This document shows positions 40,597 through 64,000 of a DNA stretch of 64,000 nt, piece by piece. The DNA comes from an uncultured bacterium (GTDB lineage Bacteria; Patescibacteriota; Minisyncoccia; Phycocordibacterales; CAIZLB01). The notes under the pieces are model-generated. The model saw nothing but the letters and a program-made list of their open reading frames with translations, did not search any database and had not been told where the DNA came from. Position 1 is the first letter of the stretch. Each line of letters opens with the position of its first letter. The DNA lies in assembly GCA_903936565.1 (NCBI GenBank), contig CAIZVZ010000001.1:95905-159904 (forward strand). Reading direction: 5' to 3'. The translations under genes were made by a program, and so were the position numbers.

Positions 40597-41670
40597 TTAC
40601 TTAGGCAACATCCCATTCTCAATAACTCCAATCTTAAACTCCGGCTTTCTAACACCAACTGAATCAAATTCAATCTTTCCACTAACTCCACTTGAATTTG
40701 ATTTCAAGATGTTAGCCATCCATTTTGAATTATCAGAGCTGTAATTATTAGATAGTAGATTTACAGCATCATATCCAACGTTTCCAGTTAGTATATTTGA
40801 GTTGCCAAATCTTTTTGTATATGAGGCAACAAAGGCAGGTTCGTTGAAATTTCCAACAACCACAACCTTACTTCCGTTAAACATCTCTGGGCTCGCAATC
40901 TTCGTTGCTGACTCCCAACCATTTTGAAGATCACAATCGAAATAGTACGATACGTTCTTCATTCCTAATTCATTGAAAGTTTTAAGGAATCTTGCCATTA
41001 AGTCAGGTGTAATAACAAGGGCAACAGCATCAGGATTCAGAGCTTTAATCTTTAAAGCAAAAGTTCTAATATCTTGCTCTCCAAAATTCACAACAAACTC
41101 ATCTACATTTCCTTGATAACCCTCCTTAACACCCTTAGAAAATCTTGCAAAGACAGCGTGATTTCCTGTCACCATTACAACTTTTTGCTTTCCATCCTTT
41201 TTAATTTCTTGCCCCATTGCAACTTCACTTGCATAGTTCCCAGGATAAATTTGCAAAACATTGTCATCCTTTGGATCAAGTGATTGCTCACCGCCGTTGA
41301 TGACAGGCATTCCGTCCGCCACTACATCATTATAGATGGAATCGATAGTAATTGTATCAACTGCAATTAATACATTTATGTGATCTATACTTTTTAACTT
41401 CTTATAAGCCGACAATGACTTACCAGGGTCAAATGCTCCGTCTTCAACAATCAACTCAATTTTCTTGTCCGGATTTTTTGCTTTTATTTCCTCCACAGCA
41501 AGTAACGCACCGTTTCTAAAAGTTTCACCAACAGATGCATAGTTACCAGAGAAAGGACCAATAAGACCAATTCTCAAAACCTGATCATCCTTTTGTCCTC
41601 CACCAAATGCAAAAACCGCCACTACAACTATCACTATCGCGACCACCCAAGCAATAACTTTTTTATTCAT
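40597..41670 (-). CDS. LivK-like type-I substrate-binding protein, signal-anchored, SBP-2
   Basis: It has LRIGLIGPFSGNYASVGE ... KKIELIVEDGAFDPGKS. The ORF runs to 41748, but a start at MNKKVIAW (41670) matches the M-(K/N)-K-hydrophobic start of every other SBP in the array. Confidence 0.8.
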   Translation of the reverse strand: MNKKVIAWVVAIVIVVVAVFAFGGGQKDDQVLRIGLIGPFSGNYASVGETFRNGALLAVEEIKAKNPDKKIELIVEDGAFDPGKSLSAYKKLKSIDHINVLIAVDTITIDSIYNDVVADGMPVINGGEQSLDPKDDNVLQIYPGNYASEVAMGQEIKKDGKQKVVMVTGNHAVFARFSKGVKEGYQGNVDEFVVNFGEQDIRTFALKIKALNPDAVALVITPDLMARFLKTFNELGMKNVSYYFDCDLQNGWESATKIASPEMFNGSKVVVVGNFNEPAFVASYTKRFGNSNILTGNVGYDAVNLLSNNYSSDNSKWMANILKSNSSGVSGKIEFDSVGVRKPEFKIGVIENGMLPK

Positions 41671-41791
41671 AATTTTATCTTTTAAATAATTAATGTAATC
41701 ATTATAAACCCTCTCACAATTAAAGACATTTAATTTGTATTTTGGCAATTATGCACACAATTAGGCTATGTTTAAAGGCTTATATTATTAA

Positions 41792-41813
41792 TCAATATGT
41801 CAGGAATATTGAC
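41792..41813. promoter_or_regulatory. Inverted repeat TCAATATGTCAGGAATATTGAC (8-bp arms) in the SBP-2/TrmB divergent intergenic region; core GTCAGRAATATTGAC recurs at 43902-43916
   Basis: Palindrome read directly; it is shared with the next cassette. Confidence 0.35.
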
Positions 41814-41845
41814 ATTTTATTGATAAAGACATACAATTAATCACA

Positions 41846-42637
41846 ATGTCAAGAAAAGTAACCAAAAATCCATATCTATTTTCTGCCAATGAGAGACTAT
41901 TGTTGGCTAATATACAAAAGCACAATACCCCACTTGAATTATCTGCTGTGACCAAAATCCCCCGCCCCACCGTTTACATTACACTAGAGAAATTAGAGAT
42001 TAGAAATTTAGTACACAGCACTAAGATTTTAAAGAAAAGAAAATGGTTCTTAAATGCAAATATTGAATTGAATGATTTGATAGGTAAGGACGGAGGTACC
42101 ACAATTCATCCAGTAAGTAACCCCACCTCCCCTACTCCAGGAGTCCAGATATATACAGACAAAAAGGATATCTTTAAAGTACTCGATAGAATAAGCGCGC
42201 CATCCAAAACTCGTCTTCAGATCTTGAGTGGAGATAATATTTTGAACGACTACGACACCGCAGTTGGAAAGAATAAAATAATTGAATTCAATGAAAAGAT
42301 TAAAGCTTCAAATATTATTGTTGAGGCAATTTGCACCAGATTTGTCTTTGACACTCAAATGGTCCACTTTGGTGAGGACTGGACCGAGTCTTATATGGGA
42401 AGATCCACTGAAGTGCACACGATTAATAAAAAGTATCTAAACCACAATAGGCAGATTTTCATCTATAACAATCGTGTCTACTTTTTTATGCTAGATAGAC
42501 CTGCCATTTTAGAAGTCTCTGATTCAAACCTAGTTAAAGCATTTATGTCTATTTTTGAATTCATCAAAGACTACTCACCAAACTTTGATATGAATAGTTA
42601 CATGAAGGAAAAAATGGATAAAAACAAGAGCAAGTAA
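41846..42637 (+). CDS. TrmB-family winged-helix transcriptional regulator, R-1
   Basis: The N-terminal HTH LSAVTKIPRPTVYITLEKLEIRNLV matches the TrmB HTH pattern (xxIAxxxxIPRxxVYxxLxxLxxKGxV). It is 263 aa and divergent from SBP-2. Confidence 0.7.
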   Translation: MSRKVTKNPYLFSANERLLLANIQKHNTPLELSAVTKIPRPTVYITLEKLEIRNLVHSTKILKKRKWFLNANIELNDLIGKDGGTTIHPVSNPTSPTPGVQIYTDKKDIFKVLDRISAPSKTRLQILSGDNILNDYDTAVGKNKIIEFNEKIKASNIIVEAICTRFVFDTQMVHFGEDWTESYMGRSTEVHTINKKYLNHNRQIFIYNNRVYFFMLDRPAILEVSDSNLVKAFMSIFEFIKDYSPNFDMNSYMKEKMDKNKSK

Positions 42638-42686
42638 AAAACAGCAGGAGTTCCTACTGTTTTCCACTCTACCCTCCAGCTAAATA

Positions 42687-43778
42687 TTATTTCACTGTTA
42701 ATTCTCCATTTATAATCTCCCCTATCTTAAATTGTGGCGGCCTCATACCCACGTCATTAAATCTTATTTCTCCGGTAACGCCCATTGCTTTATATTTCTC
42801 GATATTGCTCTTCCACTTAGACTGGTCTTTATCGTATAAATTAATAGCGGTCATATAAGCGTCATATCCAAAGCCTGATAACATAGATACGTTCTGATTA
42901 AATCTAACCTTATATTTCTCTTGAAACTCCTTAGTCATCTCTGCTGCAGAGTATAGACTCTTTGAACCGTTAAGAGTACTCAGACCTCCAAGTGCATCTT
43001 TGTAATCATTAATTCCAAATTGTAGATTGATGTCAAAGTACATGTGTTTAGGCACAGCATTGAAATCTTTCAACTTACGAACAAGCTTTGCTCCATCTTT
43101 TGCCTCCATAAATATAAGTAATCCATCCGGGTTTGATTCTTTTATTTTCAGTGCAATACTACTCATATCCTTTTCTGATGTACTTATTCTCTGAATTTCA
43201 ACCTCTCCCTTATATGTTTTAGTAAAGTCAGAAACAAATTTCTCATAAGCCTTAAATTGTTGCATGGCAATTACCACCTTCTTTACCTCATCCTTGTTTG
43301 CAACATCACCCATTACCCCAATTGAAGTTTGATCAGGATATATTTGATATATGTTATCTGCGATTGGATCACTCTCCGCTCCAAGTTGAAATGTAAGCAT
43401 TCCGCTATCGTGAACATCCTTAGAGATAACATCTATTGTTGGAGATGACAGATTAATTAGCGTGTCAATTTTATTAATAGAAACTAATTTCTGATACGCT
43501 GACGCACCTTTTTTTGAGTCAAAGTTATCATCTTCAATAAATACATTTATTTTCTTTTCGGGATGTGCTTTTGCATATTCCTCCTTGGCTAAAGTGATTC
43601 CGTTAGCAAAACCCTGACCCAAGTTGTCACCTCCAGATATTAAACCTGTAAGTGAGGTTATAACACCTATATTAATTGAGTCTGCCTGCTTACCATTTGA
43701 ACCATTAAGCGATATGACGATGATGACAATTACTGCTATTGCTACCAAACCTGTTACTAATTTATTATTTTTCTTCAT
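42687..43778 (-). CDS. LivK-like type-I substrate-binding protein, signal-anchored, SBP-3
   Basis: An MKKNNKL plus TM helix start is followed by INIGVITSLTGLISGGDNLG ... KKINVFIEDDNFDSKKG. Confidence 0.8.
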   Translation of the reverse strand: MKKNNKLVTGLVAIAVIVIIVISLNGSNGKQADSINIGVITSLTGLISGGDNLGQGFANGITLAKEEYAKAHPEKKINVFIEDDNFDSKKGASAYQKLVSINKIDTLINLSSPTIDVISKDVHDSGMLTFQLGAESDPIADNIYQIYPDQTSIGVMGDVANKDEVKKVVIAMQQFKAYEKFVSDFTKTYKGEVEIQRISTSEKDMSSIALKIKESNPDGLLIFMEAKDGAKLVRKLKDFNAVPKHMYFDINLQFGINDYKDALGGLSTLNGSKSLYSAAEMTKEFQEKYKVRFNQNVSMLSGFGYDAYMTAINLYDKDQSKWKSNIEKYKAMGVTGEIRFNDVGMRPPQFKIGEIINGELTVK

Positions 43779-43901
43779 ATTTTTTAATTTATTTTTATGA
43801 CATCATTTTATGGCAATGTACAGATAGAGTCAAAGTTTATAAATATGACTAACCGATATTAGGCCTATTTATAGAGCTAATATGGTCATACATAATTGGT
43901 A

Positions 43902-43916
43902 GTCAGAAATATTGAC
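43902..43916. promoter_or_regulatory. GTCAGAAATATTGAC motif (within palindrome TAGTCA-n7-TGACTA) upstream of the R-2 start
   Basis: Same 15-mer class as 41799-41813. Confidence 0.35.
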
Positions 43917-43946
43917 TATTTTGCAAATATTGATAAAATGTTGTAT

Positions 43947-44684
43947 ATGAATGAAATACTAAAAGCACTAACGAACGCTGGCCTAAATCAAAAGGAGGCA
44001 GAAATATATCTAATTCTTTTAAAACTAAAGACTGCCACAGCCTATAAAATTGCAAAGGACTCTTCCATCAAAAAACCGACCGTGTATGTAATTCTTGAAA
44101 CACTAAGGCAAAAAGGCTTTATTCTTAAGACCCCTTCAAAGCGAGGTACGGTCTATACTGCAAAGTCCCCCGATGAATTCATCAATATTATTGAACAGAA
44201 GTTTACTAGCGTCCTCAACACCCTACCTTTACTTAAAAGTATATTTAAGGAAAGTTCAAATAATATTAATGTCTTTTATTTTGAGGGAATGAAAGGTCTA
44301 GAAGATTTATGCTATTACAGATTCGATGAGATAAATGATACCGAGATGGTTGGATTCTTTGCTAAGCCATCAACTAATTTTAAGGAATACGAAGCGTTAT
44401 TTACGAAATGGTCAAAAGATCTATTAAAAAGAAAAGTAAAAATAAGTGGAATAACCCCGGACCATCAATATATGAAAGGTCAAGTTGAAAATAACAGAGA
44501 TGCTTATCGTAATTTGAAATTAGTAGACCCGGAAAAATATTCATCAACCGTTTCCATAGATGTCTCGCTTAATTTTGTAAGAATCATGGATCTCAAGAAT
44601 CTTAATGGAGTTATAATTGAGAATACTGATTTAGCAAACGCGATTCACCAGGTGTTTGATATGGTCTGGGAGGGTCTCAAATAA
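43947..44684 (+). CDS. TrmB-family winged-helix transcriptional regulator, R-2
   Basis: It has the HTH KEAEIYLILLKLKTATAYKIAKDSSIKKPTVYVILETLRQKGFI. The ORF opens at 43896, but the likely start is MNEIL at 43947. Confidence 0.7.
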   Translation: MNEILKALTNAGLNQKEAEIYLILLKLKTATAYKIAKDSSIKKPTVYVILETLRQKGFILKTPSKRGTVYTAKSPDEFINIIEQKFTSVLNTLPLLKSIFKESSNNINVFYFEGMKGLEDLCYYRFDEINDTEMVGFFAKPSTNFKEYEALFTKWSKDLLKRKVKISGITPDHQYMKGQVENNRDAYRNLKLVDPEKYSSTVSIDVSLNFVRIMDLKNLNGVIIENTDLANAIHQVFDMVWEGLK

Positions 44685-44691: not shown

Positions 44692-45765
44692 CTATTTAAT
44701 ATCCACAAACTTACCATCTGCAACAGTAGAGACTTGATATTGATCCTGTAAGTCACCATTGGTGTCAAAATTGATTGAGTAAGTTAGACCCGGATAATCT
44801 TTTATACCAGCTACATAATCTTTTATACACAGATTCTTGTCCCCTGTTGTACATTTATCTAGGGAAGAAATTAGTATTTTCATGGAGTCATAATTTCTAG
44901 TAGTCACATAGTTTGGAGCTTCCTTATACTTCTCCAGATATGACGTCCCAAAATCTTTATTTACCAACAGTACTGAAGGCGAAATTATAATCACACCCTC
45001 TGCGTATTGTCCCGCCATATTAATCAACTCTGGACTATAGCATGCCGATCCGCAATATATCTTCGTATTAACACCAAGCTCCCTTGCTTGTTTTACAAAA
45101 ATTCCCGCTTCCTTTCCCCATGAGGCAATAAATATCACATCCGGATTTGCGTTTTTTATTTTTATTATTTGAGATCTTAAATCAGTATCTGTTGGCAAAA
45201 AACCTTCTGATGCCACTATATTATCTTTATCAAAATTTTTAGTAAATGCATCTGCAATCCCCTTTCCATAATCATTATTAAGATAAATAACCGCTACTCT
45301 TTTTTTGCCGTCCTTTAATATCGTGCTTTTAATTGTAGACATTTCAACATCAGTTGTACCGTTTATTCTAAAAGTATAATCGTTAGGAGTTGAATACGGT
45401 GGGGCCGCTACTATACTAAATGTTGGTATTTTACTTTCATTGACTACAGGTGCAATCGCCATAGCAACTGGACTTCCAAGTGAAAATACAGCTCTAATAC
45501 TTTTATCATTTTTATATTGATTAATGATAGATATAGCCTTCTTAGCGTCTAGCTGACTATCTTCAAAAATAATCTCAAGATTCTTACCCTCTGACGCTAG
45601 CTGCAAACCTCTTTTTGCCCATTCTCCATGTTGAGAATTAGAACCACTCAAAGGAAGTATCGCAAGCACCCTATCTTTACCAGAATTATTATTCCAACCA
45701 CTGAATACGACAATAAAGACGATTATTACGATAGCGGCAATCCAGTATAATTTGTTTTTATTCAT
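44692..45765 (-). CDS. LivK-like type-I substrate-binding protein, signal-anchored, SBP-4
   Basis: An MNKNKLYW plus TM helix start is followed by LAILPLSGSNSQHGEWAKRG ... EIIFEDSQLDAKKA. Confidence 0.75.
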   Translation of the reverse strand: MNKNKLYWIAAIVIIVFIVVFSGWNNNSGKDRVLAILPLSGSNSQHGEWAKRGLQLASEGKNLEIIFEDSQLDAKKAISIINQYKNDKSIRAVFSLGSPVAMAIAPVVNESKIPTFSIVAAPPYSTPNDYTFRINGTTDVEMSTIKSTILKDGKKRVAVIYLNNDYGKGIADAFTKNFDKDNIVASEGFLPTDTDLRSQIIKIKNANPDVIFIASWGKEAGIFVKQARELGVNTKIYCGSACYSPELINMAGQYAEGVIIISPSVLLVNKDFGTSYLEKYKEAPNYVTTRNYDSMKILISSLDKCTTGDKNLCIKDYVAGIKDYPGLTYSINFDTNGDLQDQYQVSTVADGKFVDIK

Positions 45766-45865: not shown

Positions 45866-46693
45866 ATGACAAAAATAAACATAAAGAATCAAGAAATTAC
45901 AATCAATTTATCAAAGATGGGAGATGATTATATATCGCTGACAGACATAGCTAGATACAAGAATCCACATGAACCGAAGGATGTGGTAAAAAACTGGATG
46001 AGAAATAAAAATACTATTGAATTTTTAGGGTTGTGGGAAAGAATAAACAACCCTCATTTTAAGGGGGTCGAATTCGACCCCCTTAAAAAAGAAGCTGGTT
46101 TAAACAGTTTTACCCTATCCCCAGAAAGATGGACCAAGCTGACTGGTGCTATTGGCGTTAAAACACTAGCTAGGCGTCACAATGGCGGGACATTTGCCCA
46201 CAAAGATATCGCTTTCGAATTTGCAAGTTGGGTATCTTCTGAATTTAAGCTGTATTTGATTAAGGAGTTCCAAAGGTTAAAAAATGAGGAGAACGATAGA
46301 CTGAATCTCGGATGGAATGTTAGGAGATTGTTAACTAAAATAAATTACAAGATACACACAGATTCCATAAAAGAAAACATAGTCATGCCTCAAAAGTTAT
46401 CTGGAAAGGATTCAATGGCGGTTTATGCCAATGAAGCCGATGTTTTAAATAAAGCCTTATTTGGTATCACAGCTAAAGAATGGAGAGATGCGAACACAAA
46501 GCTTAGAGGTAACATCAGAGACTATGCAAATATCATACAATTAGTCTGTTTAGTTAATTTAGAAAACTTGAATTCAGAATACATCAAGGAAGGACTTAGC
46601 CAAGGAGAAAGATTAATTAAGTTAAATGAAATTGCAATTCATCAGATGGGTTTACTTATAGATAATTCGGGTATCAGAAAGCTGGGCAAATAA
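45866..46693 (+). CDS. KilA-N domain-containing protein (phage/APSES-type DNA-binding domain)
   Basis: The N-terminal 150 aa match the KilA-N pattern (ISLTDIARYKNPHEP...NWMRNKNTIEFLGLWERINNPHFKG..EFD.LKKEAGLNSFTLSPERW...GGTFAHKDIAFEFASWVSSEFKLYLIKEFQRLK). It occupies the slot where the other cassettes carry a TrmB gene. Confidence 0.75.
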   Translation: MTKINIKNQEITINLSKMGDDYISLTDIARYKNPHEPKDVVKNWMRNKNTIEFLGLWERINNPHFKGVEFDPLKKEAGLNSFTLSPERWTKLTGAIGVKTLARRHNGGTFAHKDIAFEFASWVSSEFKLYLIKEFQRLKNEENDRLNLGWNVRRLLTKINYKIHTDSIKENIVMPQKLSGKDSMAVYANEADVLNKALFGITAKEWRDANTKLRGNIRDYANIIQLVCLVNLENLNSEYIKEGLSQGERLIKLNEIAIHQMGLLIDNSGIRKLGK

Positions 46694-46814: not shown

Positions 46815-47882
46815 CTACTCCTCCAGCTTCACAAACTTCCCATCCTTGAATATGTGTAGCTCGTACGCAGCTGGTCTTGTTCCTTGGTTATCAAAGGAAA
46901 CTCTTCCTGACACACCATCAAAATTTGTTTTAGCCACCACTGATTTCCAATCTTTCTTAGGAACACCTCCTAGCTTCTTAATGATTTCTGCAGAGTCATA
47001 AGCATAATCACTTATGAACAATGGATCGTAACCGTACTTGGCCTTAAATGCATCTTTGAAGCTCTGTGTAGTGTCTGATGGAAGATTAGCTGATATACAT
47101 CCCTGTAGCATCTTATCGCTTCCTAACGCCTTAATATAATCTCCAACAACAAACTCTATATTAGCATCACATATCACTGAAACATTCTTTGAACCCTTTT
47201 GTTCTCCAAGAGTCTTAAGTAATTTAATGCCAGTATCCTTATCAACAATCACCGTCATAGCATCTGGATTGAACGCAAGTATCTTCGCAACTTCTGTTCT
47301 CAGGTCTCCATTTGGAGCAATATTAAAATCCTCTGTAATTACATTTTGACCCAAAGCCTTTTTGAAGTATTCAGCGTCAGTCTTAAATATATCTAAGCTC
47401 CCACTGTATACCACAGCAATTCTACTGTATCTTTTTGAAGCCTCTTTTCCAACAGCACTAAAGATTGGATAACTGAATGGTATTGTTTGGAAAACCGTAT
47501 CATCTTTCTTTGTATTAGATTCAGTTAAGTGAAAAGTTAAAATTTGATCTTTTTCAATTAGAGCCTGATTAGCATCCAATGACGGACTATCAACATTTAT
47601 TATCACATCCACCTTATCGATTGAAGTTAACTTTTGATAAGCAGAAACTGCTTTCTTTGGATCAAATGCATCATCCTCAAACACAACCTGTATATTTGAA
47701 TCCTTTTCGAAACTCATTAAAATTGAATTTCGAATACTTTCACCAAGAGCTCCGTATTGTCCGGACATTGGCGCTATGACACCAACTTTAATTTTTCCAC
47801 TTGGCTTTTCTTTTGACGAATATGCAACCGCTGTCAAGATTATCGCTATTACAACTATTCCTATAATTATTTTTTTCCTCAT
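46815..47882 (-). CDS. LivK-like type-I substrate-binding protein, signal-anchored, SBP-5
   Basis: It has IKVGVIAPMSGQYGALGE ... VVFEDDAFDPKKA, and the C-terminus ends ELHIFKDGKFVKLEE. Confidence 0.8.
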   Translation of the reverse strand: MRKKIIIGIVVIAIILTAVAYSSKEKPSGKIKVGVIAPMSGQYGALGESIRNSILMSFEKDSNIQVVFEDDAFDPKKAVSAYQKLTSIDKVDVIINVDSPSLDANQALIEKDQILTFHLTESNTKKDDTVFQTIPFSYPIFSAVGKEASKRYSRIAVVYSGSLDIFKTDAEYFKKALGQNVITEDFNIAPNGDLRTEVAKILAFNPDAMTVIVDKDTGIKLLKTLGEQKGSKNVSVICDANIEFVVGDYIKALGSDKMLQGCISANLPSDTTQSFKDAFKAKYGYDPLFISDYAYDSAEIIKKLGGVPKKDWKSVVAKTNFDGVSGRVSFDNQGTRPAAYELHIFKDGKFVKLEE

Positions 47883-48065
47883 AAATTTAATTTGATTATT
47901 ATCTATTAAATTAACTGTTAATTTCTGATGTCAAAATTATAAAACAGATGCTGTGAGTTGTAAAAAGTAAGGTCATTTTCATAAGCACTTCCAAATAGTC
48001 CTTTATATACAAAGTATTTTATAATATATATTGACTAAAAGTTCGACATAATATACTATTTAAAC

Positions 48066-48911
48066 ATGAAAATAAGCAAGGAGAATGCGGAAATACTTGG
48101 TTTATCAAAGGCGGAGCTTTCTATTATCGATAGCCTAGAAGCAAAGGACTCCAAACACAAAGACCTCTCCATCATCAATATATCAAAAGAAACTGGCATC
48201 CCCCGCACTTCCCTGTACTATATGCTACCTAAATTAGAAAAACGTGGTTTTATTGAAATTAAAAGAAATAACAAGAAAATATTCTGGCGAAAAAGCAGGG
48301 ATGAAGATTTTCAAAAGAAATTCTTGAGAACAATTGAAGACATTACCGAGAATAAAATTACTCACCACTCCCCCACCTCGAACAACAACCACATAAAAGT
48401 GCTTTATGGTACAGATCAGCTTTCAACAGTCTTTGATGAGATCACCGCCCTGCCTAGCAGAACTAGAGTTTTTGCTATTCAACCGGACCTATCAATTCTA
48501 GATGTGATCAAGAAACTACCTATTAAAAAATCAATAGCGGTCTGTGACGGTATTAAAAGTAAACATCTCATAATGGATGGAATAGTACATGAAAAATCTA
48601 TTGATTCCATAAAAGGCTCACTTAGTGACAAAAGAGTTACGAAGGAATTACTCAGCAGCTTCGGAGGAAGATCTGCTGATATGGCTAAAATGCCAGATAA
48701 CTTTCTGCCTACCACCCACGCTGAAACATATCTTTATGAAGATAAGGTTACGCTATTGAATTGGGATAAAGAAATAGCGGTCATTATAAAAGATAAGGAC
48801 ATATTCCAACTTATCAAGGAAATGTTTAATTCCACAAAATATCTAATGGAGAGATACGATCAGAATGAGAAGATTGCGAGAAGATTGGTAGATTTAGAAA
48901 AACTACATTAG
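48066..48911 (+). CDS. TrmB-family winged-helix transcriptional regulator, R-3
   Basis: It has the HTH ELSIIDSLEAKDSKHKDLSIINISKETGIPRTSLYYMLPKLEKRGFI. Its C-terminus is nearly identical to that of R-7 (60069-60920). Confidence 0.7.
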   Translation: MKISKENAEILGLSKAELSIIDSLEAKDSKHKDLSIINISKETGIPRTSLYYMLPKLEKRGFIEIKRNNKKIFWRKSRDEDFQKKFLRTIEDITENKITHHSPTSNNNHIKVLYGTDQLSTVFDEITALPSRTRVFAIQPDLSILDVIKKLPIKKSIAVCDGIKSKHLIMDGIVHEKSIDSIKGSLSDKRVTKELLSSFGGRSADMAKMPDNFLPTTHAETYLYEDKVTLLNWDKEIAVIIKDKDIFQLIKEMFNSTKYLMERYDQNEKIARRLVDLEKLH

Positions 48912-48944: not shown

Positions 48945-50012
48945 TTAGAACTCCGTTACCTCTAAATAATCCTTTCTTGAAACAACATCCCCATTTGACT
49001 GGAATTTATATGATGTCATTGCCCCGTCGATTCCAGCTAGAGCTTTATTCTTTAAAAGCTTGACCCTGTCACTGTCCACAACCTCAACACCATCAAGTGA
49101 CTTATCAATAAAGTTCAAGACATCAAATGTAACAGCATTATAGAAAGGATACGTTGGCTCATGTCTATATTTCATTTTAAAATCAGAAATATACTTATTA
49201 TATCCATCACTCTTTAGTACTGTTTTTAGACATTGTCCATGAATATCAAATTTGGAAATCATAGATAATTTATCACAGACATTAACATCTCCAAGAATTT
49301 TATTACTTATTCCAAGCTCCCCCATTTCCCCTAGGATAATTTTAGTAGCACCATCAGCGACTGGTATAAAAATTATTTCATCGTATTTCAAATCCTTTAG
49401 TTTCGAAAGTTCACTCCTATAACTTACCGCATCTGACGCATAAGTAATCCTTGAAACTATTTGACTACCAACCTGACTTATCAAGAAATCACCTGCAGAT
49501 TGTGAATAATCTTGCTTTTCATGCATTAAGACATATTTTTGGTCTGGATTTTGCTTCACAATATTTACAAGATTTTCAGAAATAGAAAGTCCATCTGGAA
49601 TAAATCGAATAACCTCGTCCCCCGTTTTTCTAATTTCAATTGAACCACCAAAACCTGTCATAATTACATTTCCATCTTCTTTAACAACAGGAGCAAGAGC
49701 AAGGATACTTCCACTACACGCAACGACATACACCTTAATACCCTGAGATTTTAAAATATTATAAGCAGACAATGCGCCCTTTCCAGTACATTGATCATCT
49801 TGTGCCACAAACTGTATATTTTTTGCGCGCTCACCATACATCTTTACTGATTTCTGTAAATCGTCAGTAATAGATGCGGCTGGACCAGTTAAAGGCATAA
49901 TTAATCCTACCTTTATCTTTTCTCCATCATTTTTATTAGCAAAGGCAAAGACAATGCCTAGCACAATTACAATTAGTAGTACCAATATCCACTTAAAATT
50001 ATTGTTTTTCAT
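48945..50012 (-). CDS. LivK-like type-I substrate-binding protein, signal-anchored, SBP-6
   Basis: The likely start is MKNNNFKWILVLL at 50012. It has IKVGLIMPLTGPAASI ... FVAQDDQCTGKGA. Confidence 0.75.
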   Translation of the reverse strand: MKNNNFKWILVLLIVIVLGIVFAFANKNDGEKIKVGLIMPLTGPAASITDDLQKSVKMYGERAKNIQFVAQDDQCTGKGALSAYNILKSQGIKVYVVACSGSILALAPVVKEDGNVIMTGFGGSIEIRKTGDEVIRFIPDGLSISENLVNIVKQNPDQKYVLMHEKQDYSQSAGDFLISQVGSQIVSRITYASDAVSYRSELSKLKDLKYDEIIFIPVADGATKIILGEMGELGISNKILGDVNVCDKLSMISKFDIHGQCLKTVLKSDGYNKYISDFKMKYRHEPTYPFYNAVTFDVLNFIDKSLDGVEVVDSDRVKLLKNKALAGIDGAMTSYKFQSNGDVVSRKDYLEVTEF

Positions 50013-50120
50013 AATGTCTAATATTATACAACAGCACAGGATTGTGTACAAAATAATAGACTATTACTTCACGGGACTTGATTTTATCCTTATATTACTA
50101 TATATTATCGATTATAAATT

Positions 50121-51657: not shown

Positions 51658-51806
51658 TAGATATATTATAATACAAAATTGAAAAATTAAGAATGCCTCA
51701 CAAAGGGTCAAACTAGAACTTAAAAGTCAGTATTCCATAGACTTAACCACATAAACAGCGCTGTTTCCTAGACTTAAGTCTTATAAATAAGTTATTATTA
51801 CTGTAT

Positions 51807-53595: not shown

Positions 53596-53800
53596 GTATT
53601 AAATATAGCAAATAACTAATTTTTAGTCAATTAGATATATGAAAATATGGCCTTGTAAAGCAGTTTAAACGCTAAACAATTTTAATGACACAGTTTTATA
53701 GACCATGTCAAATCAATCAACTATAATGGACCTATTATAAATTTTAGAAATTAACCATCCGCGATGTTATAATAATATCGTAATAAATAAATTATAAATT

Positions 53801-55410: not shown

Positions 55411-55436
55411 GTCCAGGAACACAACCCCACACCAAC

Positions 55437-55471
55437 CAAAATCGGCAGCTAAACCAAGGCTGCCGATTTTT
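55437..55471. terminator. Bidirectional intrinsic terminator AAAATCGGCAGC-taaaccaag-GCTGCCGATTTT
   Basis: 12-bp stem flanked by A and T tracts, between the 55075 ORF (+) and SBP-8 (-). Confidence 0.65.
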
Positions 55472-55507
55472 GAACTATTGTTTTATTCACTCAATAATAT
55501 TGACCGT

Positions 55508-56608
55508 TTATTTTATCTCCACCTTCTCCTTATTCACCACCCTACCAAAAACCAAATCTGATACCAAGACACGGTTCACGAACTTAGCATTTTCATATCC
55601 AACTACTGGCAAATCATTTTTATTTGCAAGCTTATTGGCAACACATTCGACATCCTTGTTTTTTTCACAATCTGCCAATCCAATTCCTAGCGCCATTATT
55701 GATTGATATGAATTCGCAGCAGCTTGAATATCATCGACATTCATATTTGGATATAGTTTTTTAATTTTATCAGCAAATACTTGATTTACTGGAGCCTCAA
55801 AATAATATACATTATTTGTTGCTTCCGCAGGTAAGTTGGCGATATTTTTCTCAGTTACCAAATCTTGCTTATCTGAAAAGAACCCCGCCTTAATACCCAT
55901 GTCATTTGCTTGCTTCAGAATGGAATATGATCCATCTTCATACATAATTGGCACAATATAATCTGGTGCAAATGATTTATTCTGAAGAAGTATTGTTCTG
56001 AAGTCTGTATCTTTTGGACTTAGACCTTGCACCACTTTTATATTTTCCATTGGGACTGAACTCTCCCCAAGACCACTTTGACAATACGACGCAACATCAC
56101 CAACAGCACTTACAATTAGATATTTCTTATTTGAGCCATCAATCTTTTTTACAAACTCCCTACATGCAACTTCAAAGCTTAGAAAAGTTTTTATAGAATT
56201 AGGATTTTCTTCTACAATTTTTTGATTATATGCACTGTACATCATTATTTTGTTTGCACTCTTTGCAACTGGACCAACAGCATACGCAACAGATGAGAAC
56301 TCAACATATAGTGCGTCGACTTTGTCAGCCGATAAAAGTTTTTGAGCAGCTGAGACACCTCTTGGTGCTGAGGATTGACTATCCTCTATTGTAACCTCCA
56401 CCTTTCCCTTTCCATACATATTCTCAAGGTCTTTCTCAGCCATTTGCACCCCCTTAGCGACGGGTCCTCCCCAGTATGCACCGAAACCTGTTTGAGGAGC
56501 GATTACTCCAATTTTTATCTTTGCACCATTTTCATAATTACGAGCAGCTAATAAAATCAATACTAACACGACCACTATTACGGAAACTATTTTTATTATT
56601 TTTTTCAT
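55508..56608 (-). CDS. LivK-like type-I substrate-binding protein, signal-anchored, SBP-8
   Basis: It has IKIGVIAPQTGFGAYWGGPVAKG ... VEVTIEDSQSSAPRG. Confidence 0.8.
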   Translation of the reverse strand: MKKIIKIVSVIVVVLVLILLAARNYENGAKIKIGVIAPQTGFGAYWGGPVAKGVQMAEKDLENMYGKGKVEVTIEDSQSSAPRGVSAAQKLLSADKVDALYVEFSSVAYAVGPVAKSANKIMMYSAYNQKIVEENPNSIKTFLSFEVACREFVKKIDGSNKKYLIVSAVGDVASYCQSGLGESSVPMENIKVVQGLSPKDTDFRTILLQNKSFAPDYIVPIMYEDGSYSILKQANDMGIKAGFFSDKQDLVTEKNIANLPAEATNNVYYFEAPVNQVFADKIKKLYPNMNVDDIQAAANSYQSIMALGIGLADCEKNKDVECVANKLANKNDLPVVGYENAKFVNRVLVSDLVFGRVVNKEKVEIK

Positions 56609-56761
56609 ATGCATATTTAATATTTAGTGGAATAAAGCATAACACCCATAGCTATTGATGTCATGAAATTTAATTGCATAATTATTTTTCCTATGCGATG
56701 GCTTCACATAAGGACAATTCACATGTTTACTGTTGTCCTGTTTTGTGACAGAATATTAATC

Positions 56762-57502
56762 ATGAGTAATTTAATGCAAAACCTAGAGACATTCGGCTTT
56801 GAGCCAAGAGAGGTAAAGATATATACTTTCCTATTATCAAATAGAGATTTACCGGTTTATAAGATAGCTACAGAGGTTGATATACCAAGGACAACAACCT
56901 ATAAGATTCTTGAGTCATTAAAGAAGCAAGGATTCGTATCTAGTTGGATTAAAAATGGTGTTAAATATTTTTCTGCAGAAAGCCCAGATCGTCTAAAGGA
57001 CCTTGCACAAAAGAAGCAAGACGCCCTGCAAAATGCCATGCCAGAACTAATGGGACTATTTGATACTAAATCAATTTATCCAAAGGCAAAATTGTATTTA
57101 GGAAAAGAAGGTGTGAAGCATACATTTGAATTAATACTTGAAAGTGCGAAGATAAATAAAACCCAAATAATATACGCCTATACTGATAATTTACTAACCA
57201 AACAGCTTCCAGTATTTTTTAAGGAATGGAGAGATAGAAAGAATAAGGAAACAGGATCTTATACACAGCTTATAGTCCCCCACGGTACTCCAATGAGCGC
57301 TGATTATGGAAGTGATGAGTATAGAGAAACAAGAATGATGCCTGAAGAGTTTTCATTTGCGGGATCAATTGATATTTGTGACAAGATGGTTTGTTTCTTT
57401 TCATTCCATGAAAAGGAAGTCTACTCTATTGTTGTAGAATCACCCATCGTAACAGAAATGCTTAAGAAGATATTTCAGTATGTTTGGAAGACATTGGAAT
57501 AA
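56762..57502 (+). CDS. TrmB-family winged-helix transcriptional regulator, R-6
   Basis: It has the HTH REVKIYTFLLSNRDLPVYKIATEVDIPRTTTYKILESLKKQGFV. The ORF opens at 56663, but the likely start is MSNLMQ at 56762. Confidence 0.7.
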   Translation: MSNLMQNLETFGFEPREVKIYTFLLSNRDLPVYKIATEVDIPRTTTYKILESLKKQGFVSSWIKNGVKYFSAESPDRLKDLAQKKQDALQNAMPELMGLFDTKSIYPKAKLYLGKEGVKHTFELILESAKINKTQIIYAYTDNLLTKQLPVFFKEWRDRKNKETGSYTQLIVPHGTPMSADYGSDEYRETRMMPEEFSFAGSIDICDKMVCFFSFHEKEVYSIVVESPIVTEMLKKIFQYVWKTLE

Positions 57503-58775: not shown

Positions 58776-59867
58776 CTACTTATCAAACTTCACAAACTTT
58801 CCATCTTTAAAGATATGTAGTTCACTTACCAAGGTTCTCGAACCAGTCTTGTCGAAGGTTATCTTTCCAGACATTCCTTCTATTGATAGTCCGTCCCTTT
58901 CGAGTGCCGACTTCCAATCCTTCTTATTTGTACTAGCAAGAACCTTTCCTATAACTTGTACCGCATCATATCCATAAACTCCAAGGAAGTTTGGTTCTGA
59001 ATTGTAGGCCGCCTTATATCTTTGTAGATAATCTTTGCTTGTGTTGTCAGCAATCATTGTTGATAGACATCCTTCAAACGAACTATTGGTCAAGCCTTTT
59101 TTAAGATAGTCACCAATTGAAAGTTCAATGTTTCCATCACAAATTATTTGAGGCTTAGCACCTTTTGATTGCTTATTAACTTCGTTGATAAACTTAACAC
59201 CTTGATCAACTCCCAAGAAAACTGTGTATGAGTCAACTCCTTGATCAAGCATCTTTGAAACCTCCGTTCTAACGTCAGAGTTTGATGATACAGGAACCTC
59301 AATGTAGTCTTGATTATTCATTCCTTGAATCATCATATTCTTGTTTGTCATGAAGAGTTGCGAGTCTGATGCGTAAACAATTGCAACCTTCTTATACTTT
59401 CCAGAAACTTCCTTTCCTAAAGTTTTGAACAACTCTGTTGCCCAAGGTATTACTTCAAAGACATTGTCTTTCTCAACCGCAGATTCGTTACCAACAGTTA
59501 ACATCAACTCATCTGTTTGATTAATCTTTGGTTTAAGAACCTCAAGTGTTGGGCTTACAAGACCAACAACGATATCTACATTATCAACTGATTGTAATTT
59601 GTTGTATGCAGAAAGTGCTTTTGCTGAATCGTATTGATCGTCTTCAAATACAAGCTCAATATTATTATTTTTCAAATCTTTCAAGCTCATTTCCATTGAA
59701 TTTTTTACGCTTTCACCAAATGATGCGTATTGACCTGAAAGAGGTAGAACAACTCCAACCTTTATTTTGTTATTTGCCACTGGCTTGCTGCCGTTACTGT
59801 AAGATACAGTTCCCACAACAATCAGTATCAGAACCAATACCCCAATAATTATTTTTTTGTTTTTCAT
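58776..59867 (-). CDS. LivK-like type-I substrate-binding protein, signal-anchored, SBP-10 (tandem with SBP-9)
   Basis: It has IKVGVVLPLSGQYASFGE ... ELVFEDDQYDSAKA. The C-terminus ELHIFKDGKFVKFDK is nearly identical to that of SBP-5. Confidence 0.8.
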   Translation of the reverse strand: MKNKKIIIGVLVLILIVVGTVSYSNGSKPVANNKIKVGVVLPLSGQYASFGESVKNSMEMSLKDLKNNNIELVFEDDQYDSAKALSAYNKLQSVDNVDIVVGLVSPTLEVLKPKINQTDELMLTVGNESAVEKDNVFEVIPWATELFKTLGKEVSGKYKKVAIVYASDSQLFMTNKNMMIQGMNNQDYIEVPVSSNSDVRTEVSKMLDQGVDSYTVFLGVDQGVKFINEVNKQSKGAKPQIICDGNIELSIGDYLKKGLTNSSFEGCLSTMIADNTSKDYLQRYKAAYNSEPNFLGVYGYDAVQVIGKVLASTNKKDWKSALERDGLSIEGMSGKITFDKTGSRTLVSELHIFKDGKFVKFDK

Positions 59868-60068
59868 GTGATTTTGCGAAATCATGTCGCGCCTCCGTCC
59901 ATATGGCGCGACTCTGATTGATTAATTTTTAATAACTAAATTATGTAACAATTATGGAGTATTGTAAAATATGGTATTTTATGCACATGACACATATTCT
60001 ATCACTATATACAGCCCTATATTCCATATCGCTTGACGGAATTTCCGACAAAGTGGTATAGTTAACAC

Positions 60069-60920
60069 ATGAAATTAACCAAAGACTTGATAAAAATACT
60101 TGGTTTAACTGATTATGAAGTTACAATCCTCAAAGCCTTGAAGGAGAAAGAATTTATAATTCAAGATCTCGCTACACACACGGAGATACCAAGAACCTCA
60201 CTATACTATGCCCTACCCCACTTGGTGGAGCGTGGCTTTATCGAATCTTTTAGAAGAAGCAGGAAGACGTATTGGAGAAGTATATACAATGAGACCATTG
60301 ATGGATTCTTTGAAAAGCATAGATCCAACAAAGTTGAGATTGAAGAAGGCATAGTTGAGACATCTAACACGGGGGATAATTTCATCAAGAGAATTTCTCC
60401 AAGATCTAAGGTCTATTTTTACAATGGAAAGAATAAGGCTGTTAATGTTTTTAGAGATATGGAAAAGCTACCACCACACAGTAGATTCTACGGAATTCAA
60501 CCTGAAGCTTCAATTGTTGGTGGTATAAATCGAAACAGACTGGAAGATATCATTGATTTCAACAAGAGGGTCAAATCATCAAAATTTATCGTTGAAGGAA
60601 TCATCCACGAAAGCGGAACCGAGAGTATGGTCCAATCACTTTCCCCTACTGATAAAAAGAGACTACTTGATAGTTTCTCCGGAAGAAGCGCCGACACCGC
60701 AAAATTACCTGAAGGCTTTCTTAACGACACAAAGGCTGAGATTTATTTGTACGATAATAAGAAAGTTGCAATTGTTAACTGGTATGAAGACTTTGCTGTA
60801 ATAATTGAGAACAAAGATGTTTTTGATTTGTTAATTGAAATGTTTAAGTCCACAAAGTACATGTTGAAGAAATACGATCAGAACGAAAAGATTGCAAGAA
60901 AGTTAGTGGAGTTGGGATAA
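60069..60920 (+). CDS. TrmB-family winged-helix transcriptional regulator, R-7
   Basis: It has the HTH YEVTILKALKEKEFIIQDLATHTEIPRTSLYYALPHLVERGFI. The C-terminus ...SFSGRSADTAKLPEGFL...KYDQNEKIARKLVELG is paralogous to R-3. Confidence 0.7.
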   Translation: MKLTKDLIKILGLTDYEVTILKALKEKEFIIQDLATHTEIPRTSLYYALPHLVERGFIESFRRSRKTYWRSIYNETIDGFFEKHRSNKVEIEEGIVETSNTGDNFIKRISPRSKVYFYNGKNKAVNVFRDMEKLPPHSRFYGIQPEASIVGGINRNRLEDIIDFNKRVKSSKFIVEGIIHESGTESMVQSLSPTDKKRLLDSFSGRSADTAKLPEGFLNDTKAEIYLYDNKKVAIVNWYEDFAVIIENKDVFDLLIEMFKSTKYMLKKYDQNEKIARKLVELG

Positions 60921-61042
60921 AATTAGCAAAAGTAAAAGCCCTACTCTCTTCTCGAGGTTCGGGCTCTATCTTGATGTTTATGGGATATAACCAATGGCAT
61001 ACATTACCAGATGGGGATACCATCATTAGACGGCGGCGACCA

Positions 61043-61755: not shown

Positions 61756-62916
61756 TTAGATTTTAGCATCCACCATCTCCCCACCCACAACCCCCTTCAC
61801 AACAAACGCACCATCCTCGGTAATCACAAACCCCTTCTCATCAAAGACAATTTCTGGCATTGAAGATCCTTTAGTGAATTTTATTTTTGTAAGTTCATTC
61901 ATTATTCCTTCTCTACTCAATTCTCCGTCACTCGCCATCGCCTTCCTCATCGCCTCTGTAGCAACAAGCATTGCATCGTATGAAGTAACAGCACTTGGTG
62001 AAAGTGGTTTAGAACCAAACCTTACTGCGTACGCCCTTTCAAATTCCGCATATTTTGAATCTTGCCCTGGAGTACTGTAATAAAGGGAACCTTCGAGAGT
62101 CGGAGCGCAATTTGCCAACGCCTTAGGTGTTCCAGCTGATCCTGTTGAAAGAAGTGGTACATTTAAACCTTGATTCTTTGCTTGTTGAATAAACAGACAT
62201 TCTAAATCTGCGTATGACCCAAAGACAGCATCGGGATTTGACTGCTTCGCTTTTGCAATCAAGGTCTTGTAATCAGTATTAGCTAAATCATTTCCATATT
62301 CCTCACTAACAATTTCCACACCATAATCCCCTGCATATTTCTTCATCAAGTCCGATGTATATTTCCAAAATCCAAAGTTGGCAGGTTCTACAATTGCAAT
62401 TCTCTTATACCCATTCTCCTTTGCAAACTTTAGTATAGTCTTAATTCCAACTTCATCGGAATAGAATGTTCCAAAGAAATATGGTGAAGAAACTTTCTCT
62501 TCAACTTGAGGAGAAGAGTTTGGGCTGATTATTGGAATTTTCAAATCCAAAGATAATGGGACTGCAATTGAAGCAGAGTCATCCCACTGTGGGCCAACTA
62601 TCGCCAAGACCTTATCAACAGTCACAAGCTTTTGCACTGCCGATGAAGTAACCTTTAGCTTATCAATAGATACATCTTCACTTATCATCTCCAACCTCCT
62701 TCCACCCACTCCGCCGTTTTTATTCACATATTCAACAGCAAGCAGGGCTCCATTGCGCTCTTCTTGGCCGACATCAGATCCAAAGCCACTCAAGGCCGAT
62801 ATTTGCCCCACCTTGATGACTCCACTCTCTTTTAGGCCTTTATCATCAGAGAGATACAAATATCCTCCTAAAACCCCTATTAATACAATTACGGCCGTAA
62901 TATTTATTTTTTTCAT
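61756..62916 (-). CDS. LivK-like type-I substrate-binding protein, signal-anchored, SBP-11
   Basis: It has IKVGQISALSGFGSDVGQ ... GGVGGRRLEMISEDVSIDKLK. Confidence 0.8.
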   Translation of the reverse strand: MKKINITAVIVLIGVLGGYLYLSDDKGLKESGVIKVGQISALSGFGSDVGQEERNGALLAVEYVNKNGGVGGRRLEMISEDVSIDKLKVTSSAVQKLVTVDKVLAIVGPQWDDSASIAVPLSLDLKIPIISPNSSPQVEEKVSSPYFFGTFYSDEVGIKTILKFAKENGYKRIAIVEPANFGFWKYTSDLMKKYAGDYGVEIVSEEYGNDLANTDYKTLIAKAKQSNPDAVFGSYADLECLFIQQAKNQGLNVPLLSTGSAGTPKALANCAPTLEGSLYYSTPGQDSKYAEFERAYAVRFGSKPLSPSAVTSYDAMLVATEAMRKAMASDGELSREGIMNELTKIKFTKGSSMPEIVFDEKGFVITEDGAFVVKGVVGGEMVDAKI

Positions 62917-62954
62917 GATTACTATTGTTTAATTATTAATGTTGTTGTATTATA

Positions 62955-63734
62955 TTGGGTATGGAAAATAAAACAAACTCTCCACTTCTGGAGAAGAACA
63001 TAGGCTCAATCTTGAAGAGGCAGGGATTTACAAATAACGAAGTTTTGATTTATGAGTATCTACTAAAGAACGGCAGATCAAAATCCGGACCAATTATTAA
63101 ACATACCAAGGTAGCCAGCTCTGCTTTTTATGAAGCGGTCTCTTCCCTAACAAATAAAGGCTTCATTTCTTATGAGGTAATAAATAATATTAAATTCTAC
63201 AACCCAGAAACACCTGAGAGGCAAATCAATCAATTGCAAAATGATATTGGAGATTTGAAAGCAATTTCTGAAATGCTCGGGGAAATCACTTCCGCACAGC
63301 GCGATAGAAATATGATAAATGTATATGAAGGTAATTACGGATTCAAAAGAGCCTTCGAGGAATTTACAAAGAAAGTAAACAACAAAGATCAAGTTAAAAT
63401 AATTTCTTACAATACGGAATATGAAAAGCAATATGATTTTAGAAAGTTCTTCGTTAATCTTGATAAAGGTATACAAGAGCGAGGTGGTGTTGCAAAAGTC
63501 TTAATGCAAAAGGAGCTTCAGGGATTATTTAAGAAAGAAAGAGCTGGAATAAATATTTATGATATCAAGACTCTCCCCTCCAAATACTTTGGACCATGGG
63601 CAATAGACACAACCCCGCACGAGGTTCTAATCTCCATCATTTCAGATAACCCAGTTGCGATTAGTATTAAGCACCCAATCATCGTAGAGTCATTTAATAA
63701 GAACTTTGATTATTTGTGGGGATCGGCGAAGTAG
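62955..63734 (+). CDS. TrmB-family winged-helix transcriptional regulator, R-8
   Basis: It has the HTH-like segment NEVLIYEYLLKNGRSKSGPIIKHTKVASSAFYEAVSSLTNKGFI. It is more diverged than the other regulators. Confidence 0.6.
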   Translation: MGMENKTNSPLLEKNIGSILKRQGFTNNEVLIYEYLLKNGRSKSGPIIKHTKVASSAFYEAVSSLTNKGFISYEVINNIKFYNPETPERQINQLQNDIGDLKAISEMLGEITSAQRDRNMINVYEGNYGFKRAFEEFTKKVNNKDQVKIISYNTEYEKQYDFRKFFVNLDKGIQERGGVAKVLMQKELQGLFKKERAGINIYDIKTLPSKYFGPWAIDTTPHEVLISIISDNPVAISIKHPIIVESFNKNFDYLWGSAK

Positions 63735-63756
63735 TGCAACAAAATGGCTAGGCATT

Positions 63757-63788
63757 TAAAAAACAGACATTCGCATGTCTGTTTTTTA
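63757..63788. terminator. Bidirectional intrinsic terminator ACAGACAT-tcgc-ATGTCTGT followed by TTTTTTAAT
   Basis: Perfect 8-bp stem with flanking A and T runs, between convergent genes. Confidence 0.6.
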
Positions 63789-63809
63789 ATTAGCTGTTTA
63801 TTGCTGCTA

Positions 63810-64000
63810 TTATTTTATATCCACCAATTTTTTATTAACAAGCTCCATGATTGGTAGATTCAATCCATTAACCTGATGATTAACAAAATTGAATTTTCCA
63901 GTTAACCCCTTATAGTCTTTGATACCTTCAAGATATTTAACAATCTTGTCTGAGTTCTTACCATTCTCACTGAAGGCATTTATAAATAGATCTAATGAAT
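63810..64000 (-). CDS. C-terminal part of a further LivK-like SBP (SBP-12), truncated by the window end
   Basis: I translated the minus-strand frame by hand. It gives ...SLDLFINAFSENGKNSDKIVKYLEGIKDYKGLTGKFNFVNHQVNGLNLPIMELVNKKLVDIK*, which matches the C-termini of the other SBPs. Confidence 0.55.
   Translation of the reverse strand, partial: SLDLFINAFSENGKNSDKIVKYLEGIKDYKGLTGKFNFVNHQVNGLNLPIMELVNKKLVDIK

Follow-up and report, generated by a model that had tools for sequence, protein, structure and literature searches.

We analysed a 64-kb stretch of DNA (hereafter the window) from an uncultured bacterium of the Patescibacteriota, in which an array of genes for LivK-like substrate-binding proteins (SBPs) and TrmB-family regulators extends from 32.5 to 64 kb (~31.5 kb). 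A gene map based on open reading frame (ORF) listing and Pfam scans shows in this region 11 intact SBP genes, the 3' end of a twelfth and eight regulator genes (Table 1). An earlier note on this DNA had listed at least 10 SBPs and eight regulators; all of these ORFs are present and intact, and nothing resembling a pseudogene was found among the SBP and regulator ORFs of the array. The two-gene unit that the note counted about nine times came down to eight divergent pairs (S1|R1, S2|R2, S4|R4, S5|R5, R6|S6, S7|R7, S9|R9 and S10|R10), and while the divergent arrangement held, the gaps between paired genes span 38-205 bp by the ORF calls, not 60-200 bp. The pairs are interleaved with one set of liv-type core genes (livH, livF and livG).

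Identity among the window paralogues is 21-40% for the SBPs and 20-41% for the regulators, which bears out the description of the copies as diverged and indicates that the paralogues are old. S4 and S9 (39%), together with R4 and R9 (41%), look like the only co-duplicated pair in the window. In its left half the window has genes for penicillin-binding proteins, MraW, a Mur ligase, RseP, BipA, PriA, def and fmt; these ordinary chromosomal genes place the array on the chromosome. An Rfam scan of the whole window gave a single match, a tRNA-Glu at 4041-4112, and no riboswitch or leader RNA in the array.

All 11 complete SBPs (355-386 aa) scored above the cutoff of PF13458 (Peripla_BP_6), with 55.7-169.9 bits against 31.7 (E 8.6e-15 to 1.6e-49). 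The AlphaFold2 (AF2) model of S9, the one SBP modelled, has a pLDDT of 86.8 and shows a helix at residues 4-30 followed by a disordered linker; its best Foldseek match was LivK TM1135 (E 6.6e-21, TM 0.70), and many further SBPs of the hydrophobic amino acid transporter (HAAT) type were also matched. By profile, and for S9 by predicted fold, the SBPs are assigned to the LivK/HAAT type of the type-I periplasmic binding protein (PBP) family, in agreement with the earlier note. Its signal-anchored proteins were likewise recovered, since a simple pattern detected an N-terminal hydrophobic run of at least 14 residues in 10 of the 11, the run of S10 being shorter; a lipobox cysteine was found in none of the 11.

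The nearest solved structures by sequence, all at modest E-values, include for S10 the urea binder 8tg1 and HAAT SBPs for amino acids, among them 4gnr and 4nqr; for S4 they are the Rhodopseudomonas palustris aromatic-acid binders 4ey3 and 3tx6. In Foldseek the S9 model matched leucine-, aromatic-acid-, urea- and gamma-aminobutyric-acid-binding members about equally and did not discriminate between ligands. A MAFFT alignment with the LivJ sequence (numbering self-consistent; length 344, as in PDB 1z15) is unreliable at ~20% identity; by this alignment neither Y202 nor E226 is conserved, most SBPs have S or T at the position of S79, and T102 is kept by S0 only. A ligand class was accordingly not drawn from LivJ pocket residues, the alignment being too weak. 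On this weak alignment S0 is the paralogue that best keeps the LivJ-like S79, T102 and Y150. The S0 gene starts 38 nt past priA and lies before def-fmt on the same strand, at a place where the related locus L003 has two small ORFs.

Across the 31.5-kb locus, the core consists of one permease gene and two liv-type ATPase genes against 12 SBP genes; a third ABC ATPase of the window, at 19.7 kb, is part of a separate FtsX/HlyD efflux cluster. On the minus strand, S1, livF and livH follow one another head-to-tail; no terminator is predicted in the gap from S1 to livF, which makes a single operon of the three genes probable. Other SBPs have livG and livH downstream of them in relatives, as in L012 (SBP-livH-livG). 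Judged from this gene order and content, the array appears to be built around one liv transporter core and not from independent sense-and-import systems; the repertoire of such systems imagined in the earlier note gives way to one shared core. In the search for a second permease (livM), a 164-aa membrane ORF at 38267-38761 matched no family.

Seven of the eight regulators (246-283 aa) exceeded the cutoff of PF01978, the TrmB winged helix. R1 fell short of it (21.8 against 25.6 bits) and is a clear full-length homologue of the other regulators (tblastn of R1 against R6, E 3e-13); the TrmB-type winged helix-turn-helix of the earlier note thus applies to R1 by homology. The note's observation of at least two C-terminal subfamilies was also borne out: subfamily A comprises R1, R4, R6 and R9 and subfamily B comprises R2, R5, R7 and R10, with homology between the two along the whole length of the proteins (hhalign probability 99.1%, E 5.6e-19, 229 columns). 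An AF2 model of R9, built with 40 homologues (mean pLDDT 88.3), shows, besides a winged helix and a linker helix, an alpha/beta domain and a loop at 85-101 that is modelled with low confidence, and its top Foldseek matches were eight TrmBL2 chains over their full length (best 5bpd, E 3.1e-10). Against PDB sequences, the subfamily B profile (A2) matched the TrmB N-terminus at E 6.4e-11 and full-length TrmBL2 at E 3.2e-05, with profile positions 11-242 aligned to 14-259 of 5bpd. Assignment to the NCBIfam equivalogs TrmB, TrmBL1 or TrmBL2 was rejected, all scores being far under the cutoffs; with 15.9-20.2 bits against 530 for NF041141, the regulators are not TrmBL2 by sequence.

By fold, the regulators possess the phospholipase D (PLD)-like first subdomain of the TrmB effector-binding domain, and they stop after it, at 246-283 aa against 338 for TrmB; the R9 model has no beta-barrel. 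PF11495 (TrmB C-terminal/effector-binding domain), which the earlier note had coupled with PF01978, was matched by none of the eight regulators at E<=0.01. Six of seven sugar contacts of TrmB are in the C-terminal beta-barrel subdomain, and TrmBL2 is without those last ~70 residues (PMC4158304). Because the regulators stop where TrmBL2 stops, we conclude that they are TrmB-family proteins with, by sequence and model, a TrmBL2-like build (winged helix, linker helix, PLD-like domain, no sugar-binding barrel), and that their domains give no sign of ligand sensing. They fall outside the sugar-sensing TrmB/TrmBL1 group, the barrel having been tested for and found missing. A ligand-responsive switch for each SBP, as the note had it, is thus an assumption and was not read from the domains.

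The DNA-recognition tyrosine of P. furiosus TrmB, Y50 (PMC4158304), corresponds to Y46/Y47, nearly invariant in alignment A1, and to Y47, invariant in A2. In the PLD-like domain, the polar residues H180, E181, R206, D209, E224, N237 and W238 (R9 numbering) are near-invariant in the orthologous group and some of them differ in the paralogues R1 and R6, a pattern that fits diverged small-molecule pockets but is no proof of them. An exhaustive profile search with subfamily B, which carries no taxonomy, returned 19,756 cluster representatives at E<=1e-3, of which 1,769 reached E<=1e-30. Its top matches include many long proteins, ~245 + n x 135 aa in length and matched in 2-7 stretches, in which one winged helix is followed by tandem PLD-like repeats, most ending in ...LWNQ(D/E) or a close variant; P0146 (1061 aa), P0144 (787 aa) and P0154 (513 aa), all outside the window, are examples.

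The best sigma-70-like sites of the region sit in the divergent spacers, as illustrated by the R9 promoter, TTGACG-18-TATAGT. Promoter and terminator totals were not above shuffle expectation in this AT-rich DNA; the informative part is only where the best sites fall. The units each have back-to-back promoters and several have terminators, which accords with the modular units described earlier. At six of the eight regulator genes the best -10 ends 4-8 nt before the likely start and no Shine-Dalgarno sequence is present (short-spaced sites at 41832-41846, 43934-43947, 48054-48066, 53595-53607, 56751-56762 and 60057-60069); with the -10 so near the start, the regulator mRNAs are probably leaderless. 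S9, at least, has a ~50-nt leader with GGAGG.

Alignment of orthologous spacers revealed short constant blocks amid unalignable AT-rich DNA. In 8 sequences the R4/R9 family box, TTGACnnAnnnTnCGACA, covers the -35 and the spacer of the promoter of the regulator; in the window this box occurs only before R4 and R9. Across 15 fetched loci (~245 kb; three loci are near-duplicates) its pattern gave 14 exact matches in 13 loci. Each match is on the regulator strand, either shortly before or at the start called for an R9-family regulator, and for reliable start calls the distance from the end of the box to the start is 18 nt. The R6-family box, TTGACTAAAAATTAGTTATTTG, has a single match in the window; its core TTGACTAAAAA is identical in four genomes, down to 59% regulator identity, and the rest of the box shows one difference, in L010. 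Two further boxes are kept in three genomes each, ATGTCA-N7-TGACAT in the R1 family, with regulators only 31% identical, and AGTCA-N7-TGACT in the R2 family, with regulators 39-52% identical. In the relatives' loci the R1/R2-type dyad was found only just upstream of, or overlapping, called regulator starts, and each box pattern occurs in the window only at its own regulator or regulators. One palindrome common to all regulators was ruled out, since the boxes differ by subfamily. From these alignments we infer that the boxes are subfamily-specific candidate operators for negative autoregulation, and the presence of an own conserved box over the own promoter of each regulator subfamily suggests autoregulated, mutually insulated local switches.

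The 15 fetched loci were annotated with profiles from the window's own proteins. Arrays of 2-6 pairs among livF, livG and livH/M are common in these relatives (in L013, livF is followed by two pairs, livG, two further pairs, two permeases and two SBPs), and the array of the window is the largest of its locus type among the loci compared. L003 is syntenic with the window from priA onward, with fewer pairs; L004 is 72-88% identical in DNA to 52.7-63.7 kb of the window, is without S8 and carries two more SBPs and a regulator past R10. The recurrence of pairs and liv genes in relatives makes the locus type a shared feature of Patescibacteria. All R9 and R7 homologues with a taxon label are from Patescibacteria, the members of the Candidate Phyla Radiation (CPR), as befits the reduced-genome organism supposed in the earlier note; their source labels are Candidatus Taylorbacteria, Paceibacterota, Parcubacteria, Magasanikiibacteriota and metagenome-assembled genomes labelled Saccharibacteria. 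For relatives outside the CPR, a word-indexed profile search gave only CPR-labelled or unlabelled metagenome proteins.

The locus type is thus not unique to this genome but lineage-wide, and no description of the SBP-TrmB-regulator arrangement was found in the literature searched (subscription journals not covered). This bears on a further explanation, that several independent amino-acid ABC transporters are simply clustered here, with local regulators of an ordinary kind and nothing unusual about them. The families are indeed common and already named by annotation pipelines (JGI, 'sugar-specific transcriptional regulator TrmB'), but the ratio of SBP to core genes given above, which is similar in relatives, and the lack of a description of the arrangement speak against such a cluster, which we regard as most improbable. 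We conclude that the families are known and that the combination of many SBPs, paired TrmB-family regulators and what appears to be one importer is a new variant, common to a large uncultured group.

With two near-duplicate loci set aside and the window included, 37 of 41 regulator homologues lie opposite an SBP within 400 bp, and two of the four exceptions are at contig ends. Regulator and SBP distances are correlated over 36 pairs (Mantel r 0.76, p <= 0.0005). In 19 of the 36 cases, the nearest regulator in another locus has the nearest SBP as its partner, against ~1 in 32 by chance. Clustering at 40% identity gave 14 regulator and 15 SBP clusters, mostly one-to-one. These comparisons indicate that regulator and SBP types are mostly inherited together.

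Our preferred reading, which we hold to be probable, is that the locus encodes one LIV/HAAT-type importer core with many interchangeable, separately switched SBPs on the chromosome of a patescibacterium of the Parcubacteria type. Within the intergenic region that it shares with the SBP gene, each regulator would bind the subfamily-specific box that lies across the -35 and the spacer of the regulator's promoter, presumably as a repressor and perhaps in response to an effector, and this binding would set transcription of both the regulator itself and the facing SBP gene. The genes livF and livH, downstream of S1, would be controlled together with S1. If all SBPs dock on the one translocator, those produced at a given time would decide what it imports.

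Several observations count against this reading. S0, S3 and S8 have no regulator partner, and S3 stands opposite a KilA-N gene instead of a TrmB-family regulator, so that the one-to-one coupling claimed in the earlier note holds for the eight pairs and for most homologues but not throughout. No second copy of any box was found near the SBP promoters of the window, which makes control of the SBP genes, unlike autoregulation, a guess from position. A second permease (livM) was not found in the window by tblastn; relatives carry two permease genes within their liv/SBP loci, and in the close relative L005 the order after R10 is SBP-regulator-permease, which suggests that the missing livM-type permease is probably just past the window end. 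Co-phylogeny of the partners, proposed as a check in the note, emerged from all 36 pairs but not from the window alone, where the correlation fell short of significance (Mantel r 0.33, p 0.075). Regulator-family proteins at greater distance (38% and 28% identical) do not have SBP genes as neighbours. Without the barrel, effector sensing has no support at the domain level, and TrmBL2 itself is a chromatin-like repressor with no reported effector (PMC4158304).

The last such point concerns R7, whose orthologue in L004 keeps its promoter region and stands opposite an SBP only 23% identical to S7. The similarity of the window to L004 breaks off precisely at the stop codon of S6 and sets in again within the S7|R7 spacer, a little before the start of the SBP gene, and the first ~15 anchor residues of the two SBPs are alike despite their low overall identity. 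These breakpoints indicate that the SBP coding region was exchanged under an unchanged promoter region and regulator, and such a swap of partners argues against strict matching of regulator and substrate. The non-homologous 1.7-kb segment (S7 coding region and 3' flank; 54908-56613 in the window, 2333-4005 in L004) has flanks that are 72-86% identical, and its GC content is 0.39 in the window against 0.32 in L004.

An exchange of this kind would also fit a rival explanation with the same architecture, in which the regulators do not sense substrates but are effector-independent, negatively autoregulated repressors, or a cross-regulating network, with SBP levels fixed, hierarchical or set by a general signal. 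The TrmBL2-like build without a sugar-binding barrel and the restriction of the boxes to the regulators' own promoters point in the same direction. So does R10, a protein ~99-100% identical to its orthologues (L004 10183-10962, L005 2977-3756) at 90-93% DNA identity, indicating that almost all changes are synonymous; its neighbour S10 is only 84-88% identical to its orthologues at the protein level. What makes us consider this explanation rather unlikely is that H180, E181, R206, D209 and further polar positions in the PLD-like domain are conserved within an orthologous group and vary between paralogues such as R1 and R6, as divergent small-molecule pockets would, and that one-to-one pairing co-inherited across phyla is most easily explained by matched specificity.

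The importer with switched SBPs that we favour can be carried further, though only tentatively. In this extension, which we would sooner doubt than assert, the SBP-regulator units are exchangeable cassettes that form a bank of insulated one-component switches, each regulator reading a different small molecule through its PLD-like domain and turning on one SBP for the shared importer. The array would then be among the main regulated systems of Parcubacteria-type CPR bacteria, setting which metabolites of a host or partner each strain is able to scavenge, and strains would retune it by replacing the mature domain of an SBP while promoter, anchor and regulator stay conserved. If true, effector binding by the PLD-like domain would be a mode not known in the TrmB family.

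Divergence of the SBPs to 21-40% identity, cassette swaps with gain and loss between close relatives, the gathering of defence and mobile genes at the locus and the single visible permease gene could also be accounted for if the SBPs were mainly surface receptors, adhesion or recognition proteins for a host or partner cell instead of transport components, diversified under host or phage selection. This we find improbable, because the SBPs always occur among livF, livG and livH/M genes, in several cases with a core gene following directly on the same strand (S1-livF-livH; SBP-livH-livG in L012), and their fold and closest solved relatives are those of transport SBPs.

Among known systems, the array would act most like a LIV-I-type importer with a shared LivHMGF, taken to an extreme. 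In E. coli LIV-I, LivJ and LivK share LivHMGF, so that more than one SBP serves a translocator. The two have the HAAT transporter family in common (Peripla_BP_6, BPD_transp_2 and LivG-LivF ATPases), and LivJ and LivK structures are among the matches of the S9 model and of the S10 sequence. LIV-I, however, has two SBPs against at least 12 in the array; its SBPs are periplasmic whereas those of the array are membrane-anchored; its core genes are not scattered among SBP units; and it is under the global regulator Lrp, where we propose unit-specific TrmB-family control. Several separately transcribed paralogous binding proteins are also thought to serve one translocator in Borrelia (OppA1-5) and in the pneumococcus (AmiA/AliA/AliB), but these belong to a peptide transporter family (cluster C SBPs), with fewer paralogues and no paired regulator for each SBP.

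By analogy, the array regulators hold the place that TrmB and MalR have beside archaeal sugar operons. In both cases a winged-helix regulator gene lies beside an ABC transporter SBP gene; TrmB, TrmBL1 and MalR (Thermococcales, Sulfolobus) act on the promoter region, and the array regulators, with winged helix and recognition tyrosine conserved, are proposed to do likewise. The archaeal proteins differ in having 338-349 aa and a sugar-binding C-terminal barrel, and they control sugar operons, whereas the array is bacterial, has type-I LivK-like and not MalE-like SBPs, and repeats the regulator-SBP pair many times around one transporter. Both by structure and by profile, TrmBL2 (5bpd, 264 aa) gave the best match over the full length; it shares the three-part build and is of similar length, but sequence identity is only 14-17%. 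Unlike TrmBL2, which binds DNA genome-wide with little specificity, the array regulators stand one-to-one beside a target gene and have subfamily-specific boxes, features that argue against chromatin-like binding.

CPR bacteria have very small genomes, are missing most biosynthetic pathways and are thought to live off partner cells. To our knowledge, almost nothing is known of how they choose and regulate uptake. The investment of ~31 kb, or ~3% of a 1-Mb genome, in one importer with at least 12 SBPs and eight regulators points to nutrient scavenging as a major regulated function. The array offers clonable parts, namely SBPs and regulators with predicted boxes, by which substrate range and regulation become testable in unculturable organisms. 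It would also widen the TrmB family to local control of bacterial amino-acid-type transporters through a short, TrmBL2-like build.

Table 1. Genes and candidate boxes of the SBP-regulator array (window positions).
Feature	Position	Strand	Evidence and remarks
S0 SBP, unpaired, between priA and def-fmt	32491..33624	+	PF13458 E 3.5e-47; missing at this position in syntenic relative L003
livH-like permease, sole BPD_transp_2 gene of window	38849..39724	-	PF02653 E 1.9e-42; no second copy by tblastn
livF-like ABC ATPase, same strand as and downstream of S1	39766..40491	-	PF00005 E 5e-32
S1 SBP, likely true start 41670	40597..41748	-	PF13458 E 5.1e-35; hydrophobic anchor at residues 31-51 of called ORF
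R1 box TGTCA-N7-TGACA, overlaps -35 of R1 promoter TTGACA-17-TACAAT (41809-41837)	41798..41814	+	
R1 regulator, subfamily A	41846..42637	+	PF01978 21.8 bits, under cutoff; homologous to R6 and R4; full-length alignment in A1
S2 SBP	42687..43778	-	PF13458 E 6.1e-27; promoter TTGACT-17-TAAAAT 43833-43805
R2 box AGTCA-N7-TGACT, overlaps -35 of R2 promoter	43901..43917	+	
R2 regulator, subfamily B, likely start near 43947	43896..44684	+	PF01978 E 1.1e-15
S3 SBP, unpaired, strong own promoter	44692..45765	-	PF13458 E 2.3e-41; TTGACT-16-TATAAT 45802-45775
KilA-N protein, candidate defence gene PDC-S22, array insert	45866..46693	+	PF04383 E 1.8e-20; PADLOC PDC-S22 E 7.2e-121
S4 SBP, closest paralogue S9 (39%)	46815..47882	-	PF13458; promoter TTTACA-17-TATAAT 47964-47936
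R4 box TTGACTAAAAGTTCGACA, over -35 and spacer of R4 promoter	48031..48048	+	
R4 regulator, subfamily A, 41% identical to R9	48066..48911	+	PF01978 E 4.1e-07
S5 SBP, likely start 50009	48945..50051	-	PF13458 E 8.6e-15; promoter 50050-50023
R5 regulator, subfamily B	50121..50897	+	PF01978 E 2.2e-12
livG-like ABC ATPase	50923..51711	-	PF00005 E 5.3e-29 and BCA_ABC_TP_C
R6 regulator, subfamily A	52762..53595	-	PF01978 E 2e-07
R6 box TTGACTAAAAATTAGT, at R6 promoter	53615..53630	-	
S6 SBP	53801..54907	+	PF13458 E 2.2e-20
S7 SBP; SBP at this position in close relative L004 only 23% identical	55508..56614	-	PF13458
R7 regulator, subfamily B, likely start 56762	56663..57502	+	PF01978 E 6.3e-14; homologues 246-259 aa
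S8 SBP, unpaired, missing from syntenic relative L004	57562..58707	-	PF13458 E 1.9e-44
S9 SBP	58776..59885	-	PF13458 E 2.9e-30; promoter TTTACA-17-CATAAT 59968-59940
R9 box TTGACGGAATTTCCGACA, over -35 and spacer of R9 promoter	60033..60050	+	
R9 regulator, subfamily A, modelled	60069..60920	+	PF01978 E 1.1e-08; AF2 pLDDT 88.3; TrmBL2/TrmB fold matches
S10 SBP	61756..62916	-	PF13458 E 1.6e-49
R10 regulator, subfamily B	62955..63734	+	PF01978 E 2.5e-09
Twelfth SBP, 3' end, cut by window end	63810..64000	-	last 191 bases; translation ends ...KGLTGKFNFVNHQVNGLNLPIMELVNKKLVDIK*

Other genes lie in and near the array. The KilA-N protein opposite S3 also matches a PHROGs 'transcriptional regulator' family, and AbiEii, RhuM, PemK/MazE and bAvd genes are present inside the liv/SBP loci of relatives; together with the PDC-S22 match, these genes suggest that the locus collects defence and mobile genes. 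PADLOC and PHROGs gave no match for three further ORFs, 51807-52760, 61043-61534 and 55075-55410. The first (plus strand, 317 aa) has a weak DUF3793 match (E 8e-4). The third (plus strand, 111 aa) lies within 54908-55507, the 600 bp between the convergent S6 and S7 genes, which have a GC content of 0.44 against ~0.35 around and two strong flanking hairpins. The ORF at 61043-61534 (minus strand, 163 aa) has a longer homologue, called as 284 aa, in the L003 array (14127-14987, minus strand), beside livG. A strong promoter-like site, TTGACA-16-TATGAT, is located at 61652-61625.

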